Below are positions 12,001-16,695 of a stretch of DNA of 16,695 bases, piece after piece. Made by a program: the position numbers. Position 1 is the first letter of the stretch. Every line of letters begins with the position of its first letter. Source of the stretch: Candidatus Methylomirabilis sp. (GTDB lineage: Bacteria > Methylomirabilota > Methylomirabilia > Methylomirabilales > Methylomirabilaceae); NCBI GenBank assembly GCA_041498975.1, contig JBGQJI010000047.1, forward strand, positions 1-16,695, in the 5' to 3' direction.

Positions 12001-15000
12001 ATTGTGGCCTTGCAGGCCTTCGCCGCGGAAACCAGAATCTCCTTGACAACATCAACTTTTTTCAGCAACTCCGGGTTACAACCGTGTAGTTCCACCAACA
12101 GGTGTTTCCCGAGTGCTTGCAACGATCTACCCCCTTCGTGAGAGTTGTTGGCCGATACCCACCTCCTGCCGTCCTCGTGCTTTAAACGCGTTATACCCTC
12201 TTTTGACAAAATTGCAAGAAAAAAATTCAGAGCCCATTCCTCGCCCGCGTCAGGAGGCAACGGGCACTTCAGAAGTCAATGGTAGGAGGAGTGACAGCGG
12301 TCTCGACCGGATCCCTCCCAGAGCAGACGATCTGACCGCGGGCGCAAATTCCTGGTTGACAATCCGGTCATTCTTTCGCTACAAATGGTGCCGTTGCATG
12401 GATAATTGGCTACGACAGGGTTCGGGAGGAAAAGCTTGAACGTGCCGCTTTTGGACCTTCGCGCTCAGTACTTCGCTATCAAAGACGAGGTGCGTGCCGC
12501 GTTGGAGGAGGTATACGAACGCCAGCATTTCATCCTTGGCGCGAAGGTCACCGCCCTCGAGTCCGAAATCGCCCTGTACTGCGGAGCGCGCCACGCCGTC
12601 GGAGTCTCCTCAGGAACCGATGCCCTTCTGAGTGCCCTGATGGCGCTCGGCATCGGCCCAGGCGACGAGGTCATCACCACTCCCTACACCTTTTTCGCCA
12701 CCGCCGGCTCCATCGTTCGGACCGGAGCACGGCCGGTCTTCGTCGATATCGACCCCGTTAGCTTTAACCTGGAGCCATCCCTGGTGGAGGATCGGGTAAC
12801 GCCGAAGACCAAGGTTCTCCTTCCCGTGCACCTGTTCGGCCGATGCGCTGAGATGGCGCCACTCCTTGCTCTGGCGGCCCGGCACCACTTGGCCATCGTC
12901 GAGGACGCGGCCCAGGCAATCGGCGCCGAGACCGGCGATGGAAGGCGGGCGGGAAGTATCGGGAGCCTTGGCTGCCTCTCGTTCTACCCGACGAAGAACT
13001 TGGGCGGTTTCGGAGACGGCGGCATGGTCTTAACCGACGATTTCCGACTGATGGCTCTTCTCCGAAGCCTCAGGCAGCACGGCAGCGAAGGTTACTACGA
13101 GCACCCGCGGGTCGGCGGGAACTTCCGCCTGGATGAACTGCAGGCCGCGGTCCTCCTCGTCAAGCTCAGGCGCCTGGATGGATGGACCGAGGCCCGACAG
13201 GCGCGCGCCCGCCGGTACAACGACGCGTTTCGAGCCCTTGGCCTCGATAGCCCCGACGCGCTCATCCTTCCCGAGATTCCGAAGACGGGACGCCACGTCT
13301 TCAATCAGTATGTCCCTAGGACACGCCGCCGCGATGACCTGGCCCGCTTCCTTCACGGGCGGGGAATCGGCACCGCCATCTACTACCCCAAGCCTCTCCA
13401 CCTCCAGGAGTGTTTCGCCTTCCTCGGACACAAGCACGGTGACTTTCCGGAATCAGAGCGGGCCGCCCATGAAGCCCTGGCTTTGCCCGTCTACCCGGAG
13501 CTGACCGCTGACATGCAGGAGTATGTCATCGAGGCAGTAGGCGCCTTCTTCAAGGGACGATAAACCCCAACATGCGTTGGCGCCTGAAAAAACCACGCCG
13601 GCCTTGGTTGTTGCAGGCCGGCGTGGCGTCTGGTCTCGCGTCGATACTATTCGAGTCCTATCACGTCACTTCCGTGTTCGACCCCTCTACTGCACCGTAA
13701 AGTTCGTGCTGGCGCTCCCGAAGATGGCATTCTTCTGGTTGGCGTCGGCGCGGACCTGGTAGACCCCTCTCGGATCTTTACTCCGCACCGCGAATTTGTA
13801 CACGGCCGACCCACCTGCCTTGGTCGTCAGGCTCTTCGTGACCACGGCGCCATTGGGTTTCGTGATGGTGAAGGCCACGCCAGCTTTCGTTACCGGAGAT
13901 CCGCCCAACGTCACCATGGCCGTGATGGAGACCGTCCGCTTGGAGCCGCTGTCCAACTTACTCAACTCATTAGTGGCCACGCTAACGTTGAGCGAGGAGG
14001 CAATCACATACGTCGCTGAGGCCGAACCGGCGGAGGTCTGGTCTGTGCCGGCGCGGGCCGTCACTCCGACCTGGTAGGCCCCATTGGTCGCCGAGGCCGG
14101 AGAGGTCACGCGGAAGGTCGTGGAGGCCCCCGCGCCCGGCCCAAGGGTGAGCGTCGAGGGCGCGAAGGTCGCCGTCCATCCGCCTGGCACGGTCGCCTGG
14201 AGGGAAACGCTGGATGCGGGGCAGCCCGCGCTGTTGGTGTTGGTGACTGCGACAGTGTAGCTTACGGGCGTCCCGGGCTGGACCTGCTGGCTCTGGCCCG
14301 GGGAGATCGCCACGCTTGGAGTCGCCCGCACGCAGGTGACGGGTGGCGCGTTCCCGAAGGTGACCTGTACGGCGGCGTGGTCGGTGCTCGCCCAGATCGG
14401 GGCGATCGTGACGCCCGCCTCGGCATCGTGGAAGCTCTGGCCCACCACCAGGGCGGGGTCGGACCAGGAGGTGGTCGAGGCCGTCATGTCCAGCAGGTCG
14501 CTGCTATTGGCGCTCGACTCGGACGCCAGGTGGACCACCACCCCGTTCAGGACATTGCTGTTGCCGGCAAGGAAGTCGTCGAAGCCGAGCGCCTGGCGGA
14601 ACTCCACGTAGTACCAGTCCCGCTTCCCGGTCGAGGGGTTCGTGGCCTTCAGGATCTTCAGCGCCTTGGAGTTGGCGCCCACTGTTTCGTAGGGATCCAC
14701 CCAGTAGGTCCCGTCGGCCTGAACGGTGGTCAGGGGCGGCGAGGCGGCGGCGTTCAGCCACCCGAGCCACTCCTTCTGGTAGGCGTTGTAGTGGCCGGTG
14801 GAGGCGCCCATGATGTCCAGCGTGTCGCCGTACTCGACTGCGGTGCAATTGGTCCCGAGTGTCGCGCTGCCGCAGTCCAGGGCGTGCGAATGGTAGAGGC
14901 CCAGGTTATGCCCCAGCTCGTGCCCGGCCACCTGCAACTGGAGGCTCCCGTTGATCCATGCCATGGAGGGGTTGCCGCCGACCGTCCCGAGGCCCCACCA

Positions 15001-16695
15001 GCCGCAGGCGTTCTGCGGAAAGGCATAGACGTAGCGGGCATAGCCGGACAGATTGACACCTGCCGCAGCCGCGGCCGACTGGGCGTAGCTCGCGATCTTC
15101 TGATAGTCGCAGACCGTGCTGTCCAGAGGGATGGTGTACCAGCCGTACACGTCCCCGGTCAGCGAGGTCTGCTGGTAGGAGCCTTCCAGGAAGAAGTTGC
15201 TGGTCGTGGTAAAGACCACACCCCTGGCATATGATACCGTATACGGGTGGTCGGTCGACTTATCCTGAAAGTTGACGAGGATCACGACGGTGCGCTGCGT
15301 CCCGAAGGTGTTCGGCAAGGACGCCGAGAGGACCTCGACGCTGGTGCTGCCTGACTCCAGCGCGAGGGCGTGATCGGTTTGAGGATCGGCGCTATCGGGT
15401 TCCAGCGCCATGGGCTGCTCGATCCGGCTCCCCTTGACGCGGATCCAAGAGCCCGTGTGGAGCCTGGGAGCGTCGGCCGCGAAATGGAGCGAGAATCGCT
15501 TTCCGTCGGCCTCCAAGACGTAGTGGATACGGCTCCCATCGTCCCGATCCTCATGCAGGATCTCCAGCGTCCCCTCGACTTCCATCTGCTCCTCAAACGC
15601 GGAGGCGCGCGCTCCTGCTGACGGGGCGCCCTGCCCAAAGGCGGTCCCCGCTGTGATGGCGAGGATGAGACCAAGCAGGGCGATGGTAGCGGCCAGGGGG
15701 AAGAGTGCCAGGCGAGTGCTGACTGCGTGCGAAGCGTTGCGCAGGACCATGGGGATCTCTCCTTTCTCCAGAAAGATCCCCGTCCCGGTAGGTACGGTGG
15801 TTCTTCTCTTTCGGCAACCCGGCTATCCCGATGACCTCGGGATCCGTGGTTTTGCGTCCCCCGATTGCTCGAGGTTTGCCTTTGTCGGGAGAAGATCTTT
15901 CAGTTTTGAGGTCTGGCTATTCGTGTCCGGTGCGTTCTTAGAATATAGACAAAGCAAGTCTCATGCCAATAGCTCCTGAATTCCTCACAGATGGTCTGCA
16001 ATAGCAGACGGAATAGGGAAGAACAGACACACCTCTTTGAACGATTCTTTTTGCTGTGTTGCCACCTCGATCATGCACAGTGCCGGCGGATGTAGCGTTC
16101 GGGCGCCCCGAGCAAGACATGGAGCGGACGAAACGACCCTTCCTATTGACAATTCTTGACACCGCAGTGACATCCGACGTCTCAGAGCAGGGCGTCCGCC
16201 CCGACAATGATTTCCACCGATCAGCCCGGATGCCTGAGGGCGAGTCGTGATCAGCCGTGCAAGCAAAGCGCGGCGTTGGCGATCGCCGCGCGGGCCCGGA
16301 GCGGGATGGTGGCCCTCGACCGATCCCTTTGCGAGTGATGGAAGGAGCGTCTGACGTGAAGTGTCACCGAGTGCCAGATCGCGGCAGTGATGTTCCAGGC
16401 GGAGGCGGAACAGCGCGACAAGCGGGCGTGCTGTGGCATGGCCTTGATCTGGTTGAAGACCTTCATGGTAGCGCGGATCAGGTCTGGCAGGCTCGACAAA
16501 CCAGAAGCGCTCGCCGAGGTTTGCGAAAGGTCACGTGCGAGGATAGCCGCCGGGCGTCACCCGAGCGAGGGGGAGGTCAGTAGCCGGTTCATTGTTCGAC
16601 GCAGCGCTGCTCGATGCCCTCCGGACCTGCTCCGAGGCTGCCGCCGGCTCTCCTCGAGACTTCCGGGCATCGACATTCCGTCGTGGGGGGAGGAC

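Follow-up and report, generated by a model that had tools for sequence, protein, structure and literature searches.

In C. difficile, the secreted zinc metalloprotease ZmpI (PPEP-1, CD2830) is repressed by c-di-GMP through the class I riboswitch Cdi-1-12, with a -62.6-fold change of zmpI at high c-di-GMP, and ZmpI frees cells from adhesins when c-di-GMP is low (PMC4591827, PMC6200980). Class I riboswitches are characterized by kinetic control and slow ligand release (PMC9262584). Vc2, which precedes tfoY in Vibrio cholerae, acts at the level of translation and switches it OFF once P1 has formed, and Vc1 and Vc2 combine similar aptamers with opposite outputs (PMC11705072). With respect to the enzyme, OgpA of Akkermansia muciniphila is a secreted O-glycopeptidase of the metzincin type that acts on glycoproteins and carries an NCBI annotation as M11; its authors present it as founder of a separate family, and as of 2020 no M11 structure existed (PMC7518263).

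The locus analysed here lies in a 16,695-nucleotide stretch of DNA from Candidatus Methylomirabilis sp. (hereafter, the window), in which a c-di-GMP-I aptamer is located 58 nt upstream of a predicted secreted protease gene. Both this locus and that of ZmpI place a class I riboswitch in the leader of a secreted zinc metalloprotease gene. However, the window protease has no M34 or PPEP match and therefore represents an unrelated protease family. Also, regulation of ZmpI was measured at the transcript level, whereas the window leader is a predicted Shine-Dalgarno (SD)-masking platform lacking a terminator, with a direction of regulation predicted from folding. Furthermore, the substrates of ZmpI are encoded adjacently under class II ON riboswitches, whereas here no class II aptamer was found in the assembly and no substrate gene adjoins the protease. 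Vc2 resembles our proposal in that a class I aptamer acts on translation as an OFF switch, but it controls a regulator gene rather than a protease, and the arrangement of three elements that include a 5' flank, described below, is a model for the window leader, not a documented feature of Vc2. Consequently, the concept of a riboswitch-controlled dispersal protease, offered as new in a preliminary description of this DNA, has a precedent in ZmpI (PMC4591827, PMC6200980); since the regulatory principle is already known from C. difficile, what is gained is not a new mechanism but its breadth and its extension to a new enzyme family. Our favoured reading, held with moderate confidence, is that the c-di-GMP-I riboswitch works as a kinetic OFF switch on the translation of a monocistronic mRNA encoding a secreted M11-like zinc protease.

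Aptamer and ligand assignment

The leader and the sequence upstream of it, all on the minus strand, comprise the following elements:
15942-15969, minus strand: promoter-like site, TTGGCA (15964-15969), 16-nt spacer and TATATT (15942-15947), a pattern match only
15886-15901, minus strand: 5' arm of the proposed anti-sequestrator helix, GAAAGATCTTCTCCCG, predicted to pair with 15771-15787 when P1 is excluded
15889-15895, minus strand: 5' strand of extended P1, TCTTCTC, within the anti-sequestrator 5' arm
15809-15890, minus strand: full-length c-di-GMP-I (GEMM-I) aptamer, from the RF01051 and RF03167 covariance models
15802-15808, minus strand: 3' strand of extended P1, GAGAAGA, paired with TCTTCTC in the minimum free energy (MFE) fold of the leader
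15770-15787, minus strand: linker and anti-SD arm, CGGGACGGGGATCTTTCT, from folding
15759-15764, minus strand: Shine-Dalgarno sequence AAGGAG, in a region spanning 15751-15764 that is predicted to be sequestered
15751-15762, minus strand: SD arm, GGAGAGATCCCC, of a 12-bp hairpin, ending one base before the start codon

RF01051 matched the window aptamer at 76.5 bits (15810-15890, minus strand; model positions 1-87 of 87; gathering threshold 35), and RF03167 at 71.7 bits (15809-15889, minus strand; model positions 1-80 of 80; gathering threshold 59). Across the whole assembly (2.68 Mb in 241 contigs, 84.9% complete) four RF01051 matches were identified at 76-77.6 bits, each 58-60 nt upstream of the start codon of a protease paralog, in agreement with the preliminary description; its further statement that these are all such riboswitches in the genome holds for the assembled part, but does not extend beyond it. 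The assembly yielded no match to the c-di-GMP-II aptamer (RF01786).

The segments AAAGGCAAA, CGCAAA and CCGAA are invariant across all ten aligned leaders, as are the ligand-contacting columns AAAGGCAAAC and UUGCCGAAA, which agree with the model consensus. In Vc2, G20 pairs with G-alpha and C92 with G-beta of the ligand, and cGAMP sensors are recognised by an A at position 20 (PMC6140456). The window aptamer reads ACGCAAAA where the three others read ACGCAAAG, a small correction to the motif previously ascribed to all four. Its G and C columns, placed by consensus, we take to be the equivalents of Vc2 G20 and C92. Assignment to the c-di-GMP-I-GGC variant (RF03167) was rejected, as it had been previously: the distinguishing G of the variant (ACGCGAA in its model consensus) is an A here, in ACGCAAAA, and RF03167 scored fewer bits than RF01051, though above gathering. 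The name 'GGC' presumably denotes this nucleotide (A to G in ACGC-A-AAG); the GGC and UAU variants were reportedly defined by Weinberg et al. 2017. From these sequence features, c-di-GMP is the predicted ligand.

The protease and its paralogs

The gene encodes a protein with the following features:
13687-15750, minus strand: protease gene (ORF call), 687 aa with an ATG start, containing HELGHNLGLYHSH
15634-15750, minus strand: N-terminal hydrophobic leader, residues 1-39, followed by an N-terminal domain
14521-15174, minus strand: Peptidase_M11-like catalytic domain, residues 193-410 (Pfam, 42.3 bits; gathering score 21)
14890-14922, minus strand: zinc motif HELGHNLGLYH, in the catalytic domain
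14809-14811, minus strand: Met-turn candidate M314, in the catalytic domain
14053-14280, minus strand: NPCBM_assoc (NEW3) Ig-like domain, residues 491-566 (Pfam, 3.9e-11)
13726-13935, minus strand: MG2-type Ig-like domain, residues 606-675 (Pfam, 6.7e-10)

Paralogs occupy four places in the assembly with pairwise identities of 57-82%, reproducing the lower but not the upper bound of an earlier estimate (57-84%). As reported earlier, Peptidase_M11 (PF05548) was detected in two of them, the window protein (6e-11, 42.3 bits, profile positions 48-269 of 303) and the paralog on contig C110 (1.3e-8, 34.7 bits), and NPCBM_assoc in three of the four; the two paralogs on contig C162, one of them truncated, have no M11 match in Pfam at E<=1e-3. 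Residues H277, E278, H281, G284 and H287, which constitute the HExxHxxGxxH site with its catalytic Glu, are conserved in 44/44 aligned family members, and M314 (within LDIMG) in 40 of them, the other four having Leu. The C-terminal part consists of the two Ig-like domains. We interpret the protein as a Sec-exported metzincin-type zinc protease of an M11-like family, presumably secreted beyond the inner membrane.

Gametolysin, the M11 enzyme of Chlamydomonas, acts on algal wall glycoproteins. The window protease shares with it a PF05548 match above cut-off, the HExxHxxGxxH motif and predicted secretion, but differs in that the match covers only part of the profile at 42 bits, is absent at E<=1e-3 from two of four paralogs, and occurs in a bacterial protein with C-terminal NEW3 and MG2 domains. 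Among solved structures, a single-sequence search returned only a 23-residue match over the zinc motif (E 0.87), and the family profile matched M12 and M10 structures around that motif only (E about 1e-3), its NEW3 region the corresponding domain in a bacterial sialidase (4e-4), and its MG2 region intimin Big domains together with MG2 domains of C3 and alpha-2-macroglobulin. OgpA, a metzincin secreted by a bacterium, has three His and a catalytic Glu along with a Met-turn, and was not detected in either the sequence or the profile search of solved structures, which suggests that any relationship is remote. Membership of Peptidase M6 (InhA-like; TIGR03296) was considered and rejected at 32.8 bits against a curated cut-off of 110.8. 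Feature neighbours in the ESM Atlas include M6-like clusters at 0.94-0.95, which we regard as a lead only.

The family numbers thousands of bacterial proteins, and databases already label some of these as peptidase M11. Together with the M11 annotation of OgpA (PMC7518263), this removes the novelty previously claimed for a bacterial enzyme of this type. The GC content of the gene (0.61-0.69, against 0.57-0.69 across the window) gives no sign of recent transfer.

Distribution of the pairing and possible role

Searching 250 other Methylomirabilota genomes, we identified ten with matches to the protease at E<=1e-10, seven of which cover the catalytic part; six of these seven carry a same-strand upstream aptamer of the c-di-GMP-I clan, and one (G241) carries none. 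An earlier count of eight genomes was therefore not reproduced, while its six loci with aptamers were. In addition, the aptamer is present at 26 of the 80 homolog loci found in other phyla, including those of cultured Thauera aromatica, Aromatoleum toluclasticum, Azoarcus, Tolumonas osonensis and Marinobacterium species. Within the phylum the riboswitch is found in 77 of 151 sampled genomes, mostly ahead of other genes, as assigned by a longest-ORF rule (a first-ORF rule picks spurious frames in GC-rich DNA). The pairing is thus not the feature of the NC10 lineage that it was first taken to be. Among the papers listed by our literature searches we found no description of the pairing of a riboswitch with an M11 protease or of its breadth, and the library searched contained no paper treating both Methylomirabilis and c-di-GMP.

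By analogy with ZmpI of C. difficile, the enzyme may tentatively be assigned a role in extracellular proteolysis in a low-c-di-GMP, non-attached state. The preliminary proposal that it cuts the cell's own glycoprotein layer found no support here. A competing explanation, plausible although we lean against it, accepts the regulation as proposed but takes the enzyme to be a foraging or general protease, or one acting on the glycoproteins of other organisms, rather than one for self-dispersal. Consistent with this alternative, no substrate gene is linked to the protease: no adhesin or surface-protein genes adjoin it in the window, where the neighbours are housekeeping genes, and at other loci the genes that recur beside it encode DsbA-like proteins rather than adhesins. 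The family is also very large and spread across many phyla and habitats, with a gene tree that shows a patchy distribution and movement between phyla, as expected of accessory enzymes; Ig-like domains of its NEW3 and MG2 types occur commonly among secreted hydrolases; and in the same genus the riboswitch is found ahead of GH123-like and beta-helix proteins as well. On the other hand, the association with c-di-GMP in 26/80 cross-phylum loci suggests a role coupled to lifestyle over plain nutrition, and the ZmpI precedent is one of self-directed cleavage. Two further same-genus proteins, a HELAHY lipoprotein and a CARDB-GH123 protein, had no match in G000, the present genome, with the queries used, a result that is no proof of absence given that this assembly is 85% complete. 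The conserved DsbA-like neighbour is apparently a selenoprotein in the present genome.

A more ambitious reading, which we consider quite unlikely, combines these components into a widespread, horizontally mobile bacterial 'release module' comprising the c-di-GMP-I OFF riboswitch with its conserved three-way platform, a dedicated DsbA-like oxidoreductase (here with selenocysteine in the redox motif), and an M11-like metzincin directed at glycoproteins of the cell's own surface or matrix. Such a module, if real, would set whether cells stay in aggregates. The genome encodes three GGDEF proteins and one HD-GYP-type protein, while no PilZ or EAL domains were found in it; given also that all four riboswitches precede this one family, the module would be its main recognisable c-di-GMP output. 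Should the regulatory model hold, an uncharacterised protease family of thousands would gain a physiological context, as enzymes made at low c-di-GMP, and slow-growing, aggregate-forming nitrite-dependent methane oxidisers would gain a candidate aggregate-turnover enzyme. The family would also become directly testable, since some cultured bacteria carry this pair of riboswitch and protease.

Leader folding and the direction of regulation

The promoter-like site lies about 50 nt upstream of the aptamer, in a scan that returned three consensus sites against 0.5 expected from shuffles. A contig of about 95% identity from an RNA library (metatranscriptome run X1, in which 12% of sampled words were present) spans 15589-15837, running from the 3' part of the aptamer through the hairpin into the start of the coding sequence, although such contigs are silent on level, ends and strand and may derive from library DNA. 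Among the paralogs, leaders are 82-95% identical, compared with 61-86% for coding DNA and 57-64% for upstream DNA, which indicates strong constraint on the leader. No terminator-like site was found on the gene's strand within the leader.

The MFE folds of the leaders contain extended P1, aptamer and SD hairpin all together, the local SD hairpin of the window reaching -21.4 kcal/mol. As the preliminary description had proposed, the hairpin that buries the SD is conserved, with 11-13 bp in all nine intact homolog leaders of the phylum despite divergent arm sequences; in G166, where the protease gene is broken, it has decayed. The linker and anti-SD arm doubles as 5' arm of this hairpin and as 3' arm of the anti-sequestrator helix. 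Under our OFF model, three leader elements would compete: extended P1 (TCTTCTC:GAGAAGA), the 12-bp SD hairpin and the 5' flank, whose sequence, taken with that of the P1 5' strand, complements the linker and anti-SD arm. When c-di-GMP is low, P1 would be unlocked and the nascent anti-SD arm would be captured by the flank and the 5' strand of P1, leaving the SD open for a time and allowing the protease to be made. At high c-di-GMP, the ligand would lock P1, the anti-SD arm would fold onto the SD, and translation would be blocked. As judged by folding, the OFF direction is reasonably probable.

An ON switch represents the principal alternative for the direction, and one we consider unlikely. Here ligand-stabilised P1 would stack on a helix between flank (GAAAGA) and anti-SD arm (TCTTTC) and keep the SD free, so that the protease would be synthesised when c-di-GMP is high, for instance for the processing of matrix or surface proteins as cells attach. 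Both class I polarities exist, Vc1 being an ON switch (PMC11705072) and Cdi-1-1 positively regulated, and many other riboswitch-led genes of the phylum appear adhesin-type (fn3, Big_7 and CARDB proteins). Furthermore, the eight Watson-Crick pairs of the window flank (GAAAGATC:GATCTTTC) overlap P1 by two nucleotides only, which makes a partly coexisting helix conceivable. Conversely, when P1 is imposed, folds denied the hairpin are 3.8-19.2 kcal/mol less stable in nine of ten phylum leaders; given that the ligand energy is equal for both P1 folds, the hairpin should win, and the ligand-bound form would have a buried SD. When the transcript is truncated ahead of the SD arm, the flank:anti-SD helix is favoured over the P1 state by 3-16 kcal/mol in eight of the ten, including G097 and G218, and there it consumes 7-9 nt of the P1 5' strand and is thus mutually exclusive with P1. 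Among the ten, this helix was not found in G079 or G067. The fold analysis gave no P1 pairs for G067.

Complementarity of the flank exceeded chance in most leaders. In the window, the flank:anti-SD duplex reaches -23.4 kcal/mol, compared with a mean of -9.5 for shuffled sequences, none of 200 being as low. Likewise, the flank:downstream duplex was stronger than shuffles (z<=-2) in 25 of 32 leaders, and at most two of 200 shuffles were as low in 22, counts that are not independent given that the leaders are related and share one motif. Significant flank pairing was absent from the Thauera, Aromatoleum and Azoarcus leaders and from L128, L103 and L117 among the 32, and pairing of own versus cross flanks was only moderately specific (9/24 ranking first or second).

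Comparison of SD accessibility between bound and unbound states, using nearest-neighbour folding that leaves out the ligand and aptamer tertiary structure, classified the 22 out-of-phylum leaders as nine OFF-like, none ON-like and 13 without difference. The ten phylum leaders comprised two OFF-like, one ON-like (G079) and seven without difference, and seven same-genus non-protease leaders one, one and five, respectively. Energies of the two states were often near-equal in the out-of-phylum leaders. The OFF direction advanced in the preliminary description is therefore favoured by modelling over the 32 leaders, but the window leader shows no switch at equilibrium: its SD is unpaired with probability 0.20 with P1 and 0.21 without, and the state combining P1 and hairpin lies 5.9 kcal/mol below the alternative, such that the OFF model requires kinetic control. 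That the hairpin is constitutive, with the aptamer working through Rho-dependent termination or mRNA stability or no longer regulatory here, agrees with its predicted closure in both equilibrium states, but is very improbable given the constraint on the leader, the flank complementarity far above chance and the decay of the hairpin where the gene is broken.

A strand swap between P2 (GGATCCCG/CGGGAT) and the SD hairpin, considered for G000, was set aside because the likeness is missing in G218 and G079. Finally, same-genus c-di-GMP-I leaders of other genes were found to follow the same logic as the protease leaders with other sequences (GAAGGUUCCUUUCCG versus CGGAAAGCAACCUUC).

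Organization and ligand of the riboswitch-protease unit

The leader of a gene for a secreted HExxHxxGxxH zinc protease contains a c-di-GMP-I-clan aptamer lying 58 nt from the start codon, and no terminator-like site was found on the gene's strand of this leader. The features are:

13687-15750, minus strand: protease ORF of 687 aa with ATG start, AAGGAG before the ATG at a spacing of 8 nt
15809-15889, minus strand: full-length c-di-GMP-I-clan aptamer, RF03167, 71.7 bits
15810-15890, minus strand: the same aptamer as matched by RF01051, 76.5 bits
about 50 nt 5' of the aptamer, minus strand: promoter-like TTGGCA-16-TATATT (pattern match)

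Across the source genome, G000 (2.68 Mb, 241 contigs, 84.9% complete), RF01051 was matched four times, each match 5' of one of four protease paralogs, and this association is real and well above chance. No c-di-GMP-II aptamer was found in the same 84.9% complete assembly. Aptamer and gene coordinates given in a preliminary description proved correct, as did most of its numbers, with small differences remaining. Elsewhere in the window, a polyamine cluster (8907-12260, minus strand) encodes an Orn/Lys/Arg decarboxylase, a spermidine synthase and an S-adenosylmethionine decarboxylase, and a DegT-type aminotransferase gene (12406-13563, plus strand) is convergent with the protease gene. Contigs from a freshwater-sediment metatranscriptome match window positions 13660-14038, 14512-14792, 15309-15544 and 15589-15837 at approximately 94-96% identity; one, from a close relative in which the locus may be transcribed, runs from the coding start across the Shine-Dalgarno (SD) hairpin into the aptamer's 3' portion.

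Ranking by E-value (cmscan) placed the GGC variant RF03167 first, whereas the bit score was higher for RF01051. The window aptamer (ACGCAAAA) retains an A in place of the G of the variant consensus ACGCGAA, which, together with the bit scores, upholds the earlier choice of c-di-GMP over the variant. The stretches holding the nucleotides that contact the two guanines of c-di-GMP, AAAGGCAAA and CCGAA, both fit the model consensus and are invariant in all ten aligned leaders, and the ligand is likely c-di-GMP. These guanine contacts are defined as G20 and C92 in PMC6140456, where an A at the G20 position marks a cGAMP sensor; by its match to the consensus, the window aptamer has no A there. G000 encodes three GGDEF proteins and one HD-GYP-type (HD_5) protein, and neither EAL nor PilZ domains were found in its 84.9% complete assembly. 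Among the GGDEF, HD-GYP, EAL and PilZ domains and riboswitches covered in this assembly, the four riboswitches were the only c-di-GMP receptors recognised.

The protease family and its distribution

Three Pfam domains were identified in the window protease:

residues 193-410: Peptidase_M11 (42.3 bits against a cut-off of 21)
residues 491-566: NPCBM_assoc/NEW3
residues 606-675: MG2

The NCBIfam M6 domain model scored far under its cut-off for this protein. By reading of the sequence, its N-terminus has basic residues followed by an extended hydrophobic segment and then AFG-QG, and reads as a putative Sec signal. Sequence and profile searches against solved structures returned M12/M10 matches at the zinc motif only, plus Ig-like domains, and ESM Atlas feature neighbours fell into M11/reprolysin-like and M6-like clusters. 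Up to 2020, no structure of an M11 enzyme had been solved (PMC7518263). The family is very large, with 1887 proteins at E<=1e-5 among 8000 candidates scored and 2236 clusters (50% identity) at E<=1e-30, and has members already named "peptidase M11", "NEW3 domain-containing", "MG2 domain-containing" or "M6 family metalloprotease-like" in databases. The closest named relatives belong to Candidatus Methylomirabilis. Aligning 44 members showed H277, E278, H281, G284, H287 and five cysteines to be invariant, with M314 retained in 40.

From 148 relatives found in other phyla, 80 loci were kept, and 26 of these possess a c-di-GMP-I-clan aptamer 5' of the protease gene on the same strand. They were found among Rokubacteria, Binatia, Desulfobacterota, Acidobacteriota, a Verrucomicrobia-labelled MAG, Betaproteobacteria (Thauera aromatica, Aromatoleum toluclasticum, Azoarcus, Burkholderiales, Casimicrobiaceae) and Gammaproteobacteria (Marinobacterium, Amphritea, Neptuniibacter, Tolumonas osonensis). 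Among these leaders, three are identical with those of genomes G066, G218 and G097, and locus L107 resembles L140. The latter two are near-identical riboswitch-protease loci (branch lengths 0.03-0.04) with similar scaffold names from MAGs labelled Verrucomicrobia and Deltaproteobacteria, a likeness that could stem either from ambiguous binning or from a very recent transfer.

On a tree of 84 proteases, omitting two rows of <380 aa and the truncated G000 paralog C162a, aptamer presence required 14 changes, at least nine of them forced by well-supported branches, versus a mean of 24.7 for shuffled labels (0/500 shuffles as low as 14). The aptamer thus travels with the gene, yet losses or gains of it have been numerous. 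Acquisition by transfer, suspected in the preliminary description, fits the disagreement of this tree with organismal phylogeny, although the nucleotide composition of the window gene is unremarkable. The G000 paralogs form two subfamilies: the window gene (C47) and C162b cluster with the homolog of G067, and C110 with aptamer-less Nitrospiria/Thermoanaerobaculia homologs. Their leaders (C47:15751-15915, C110 and both on C162) are 82-95% identical, compared with 61-86% over the initial 900 nt of the coding sequence and 57-64% for the upstream 150 nt. Since the leaders outmatch both regions in paralogs split over two subfamilies, this similarity points to either strong leader constraint or leader exchange between paralogs.

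Within Methylomirabilota, c-di-GMP-I riboswitches were detected in 77 of 151 genomes sampled (11/17 in the genus), and the protease in 11 of 251 genomes, G000 included. When the longest ORF downstream of each of 54 phylum aptamers was taken, four carried the M11 domain (G067, G097, G079 and G218), with a broken homolog in G166 as a fifth. The remainder include secreted proteins (fn3, Big_7, CARDB, beta-helix and Flg_new_2), GH123-like hydrolases, a small lipoprotein that bears a HELAHY motif but falls in no Pfam family, response regulators, a pilin, a glycosyltransferase and MlaC. Because most phylum aptamers precede other genes, the proposal that every riboswitch guards this protease family holds in the 84.9% complete G000 assembly (4/4) but not as a feature of the lineage; it also applies to G067, where the single aptamer is followed by the protease gene.

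Two further groups of riboswitch-associated genes were observed. The HELAHY lipoprotein-like protein (approximately 165-187 aa), possibly a small metallopeptidase, lies behind c-di-GMP-I aptamers in same-genus genomes and G241 (L075:343-837, L081:343-846, L083:3440-3949, L084:343-837, L059:882-1442), and on contig C53 of G066 its gene is approximately 5 kb from a riboswitch-protease unit; a HELAHY query did not find it in the 84.9% complete G000 assembly. Four same-genus loci (L076, L077, L080, L085) encode secreted proteins under riboswitch control, in which a GH123-like domain or right-handed beta-helix follows an N-terminal CARDB domain; these proteins could be matrix polysaccharide hydrolases sharing this leader design.

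Leader folding and direction of regulation

Minimum free energy folds of nearly all leaders combine an extended closing stem (P1; TCTTCTC:GAGAAGA in the window) with the aptamer itself and with a hairpin of 11-13 bp that carries the SD in its 3' arm, this arm stopping at the start codon. This hairpin is present in all nine intact phylum homologs despite differing arms (e.g. GGGGAUCUUUC, GAGGGGUCUUC, CGGCUCUUCC), and has decayed in G166, where the gene is fragmented. The G166 homolog (L016/L019/L022, G166:C44:54236-55905) lies in three pieces with an internal TGA, its hairpin down to four pairs and its aptamer still scoring 71.7 bits, which suggests a pseudogene that has kept its aptamer.

A third element competes with these two. 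In the window leader, the 5' flank and P1 5' strand (15886-15901) show complementarity to positions 15771-15787, which hold the linker and anti-SD arm, and a long helix between these segments is the best alternative once both P1 and the hairpin are forbidden. The flank duplex was stronger than in shuffles (z<=-2) in 25 of 32 leaders, and in 22 at most two of 200 shuffles were as low as the real duplex; among the 32, significant pairing was not seen in the Thauera/Aromatoleum/Azoarcus group, L128, L103, L117 or the decayed G166 leader. Because of the kinship among the leaders and the single motif they have in common, such counts are not independent, and in comparisons of own versus cross flank pairing, own pairing ranked first or second in only 9/24. 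Same-genus c-di-GMP-I leaders of other genes share this arrangement but differ in sequence.

Together, these elements suggest a mechanism in which ligand-bound RNA would form P1 and bury the SD in the hairpin, and in which, with P1 absent, the flank and P1 5' strand would pair with the anti-SD arm as an anti-sequestrator. With P1 enforced, the hairpin-less structure was 3.8-19.2 kcal/mol worse than the hairpin-bearing one in nine of ten phylum leaders; since ligand energy is equal for both, bound RNA should have a buried SD. When the transcript was cut short of the SD arm, 8/10 phylum leaders preferred the flank helix over the P1 state, by 3-16 kcal/mol, and this helix took up 7-9 nt of the P1 5' strand, which makes P1 and the anti-sequestrator mutually exclusive. 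A uniform accessibility test classified nine of 22 other-phylum leaders as OFF-like, none as ON-like and 13 as without difference, bound and unbound states frequently lying within 1-3 kcal/mol.

The OFF direction of the preliminary description is thus favoured by state energies, truncated-transcript folding and the other-phylum leaders, but the window leader itself is undifferentiated at equilibrium (SD accessibility 0.20 versus 0.21), its P1-plus-hairpin state being more stable than the alternative by 5.9 kcal/mol. An OFF model therefore needs kinetic control, which is plausible given that slow ligand release is documented for class I and that Vc2 is regarded as kinetically controlled (PMC9262584). 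The accessibility test also speaks against OFF in the ten phylum leaders (two OFF-like, one ON-like, seven neither) and in seven same-genus non-protease leaders (one OFF-like, one ON-like, five neither). An ON switch appears rather unlikely: the single ON-like phylum leader stands against the penalty on the hairpin-less state under P1 and the lack of ON-like cases among the 22. Routes other than OFF or ON take the remaining probability. On modelled folding, we consider an OFF switch probable, with a kinetically controlled translational switch as its most likely mechanism.

Comparison with known systems

The closest known system is ZmpI of C. difficile, a secreted zinc metalloprotease behind the class I riboswitch Cdi-1-12 that is repressed 62.6-fold at high c-di-GMP and cleaves the adhesins CD2831 and CD3246, themselves induced via class II riboswitches (PMC4591827, PMC6200980). 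Both units share their regulatory logic, whereas the protease families differ, control of ZmpI is at the transcript level rather than through a predicted translational platform, and ZmpI has linked substrates, unlike the window protease. Among documented class I riboswitches that act as translational OFF switches, Vc2/tfoY comes closest (PMC11705072). The dispersal role envisaged in the preliminary description would be assigned by analogy, its concept being known from ZmpI. A glycoprotein substrate is conceivable because OgpA, an M11 protein by NCBI annotation, is described as an O-glycopeptidase (PMC7518263). No literature linking Methylomirabilis with c-di-GMP was found in a search covering few subscription journals, nor, among the papers listed, any account of such a riboswitch paired with an M11-like protease. 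The main value of the pairing lies in its breadth and in the route it provides to experiments in cultured bacteria.

A DsbA-like neighbour

A DsbA-like thioredoxin gene was identified no more than 1.5 kb from the protease gene at 18 of the 80 other-phylum loci (L094, L099, L104, L108, L116, L117, L121, L134, L135, L138, L146, L148, L149, L150, L152, L161, L164 and L166) and in G241 (L013/L021), with or without an aptamer. In G000 it lies outside the window, between two divergent riboswitch-protease units (C162:1353-2102, plus strand; L001:346-1095), and its CxxC reads TGA-P-F-C, a TGA in frame (C162:1626-1628) taking the place of the first Cys. This TGA may be a sequencing error. Cys occupies this position in seven homologs that neighbour protease genes in other phyla, a hairpin lies 3' of the TGA, and tRNA-Sec, selA and selB are present in G000; a reasonable reading is that the protein is a candidate selenoprotein and partner of the cysteine-rich secreted protease.
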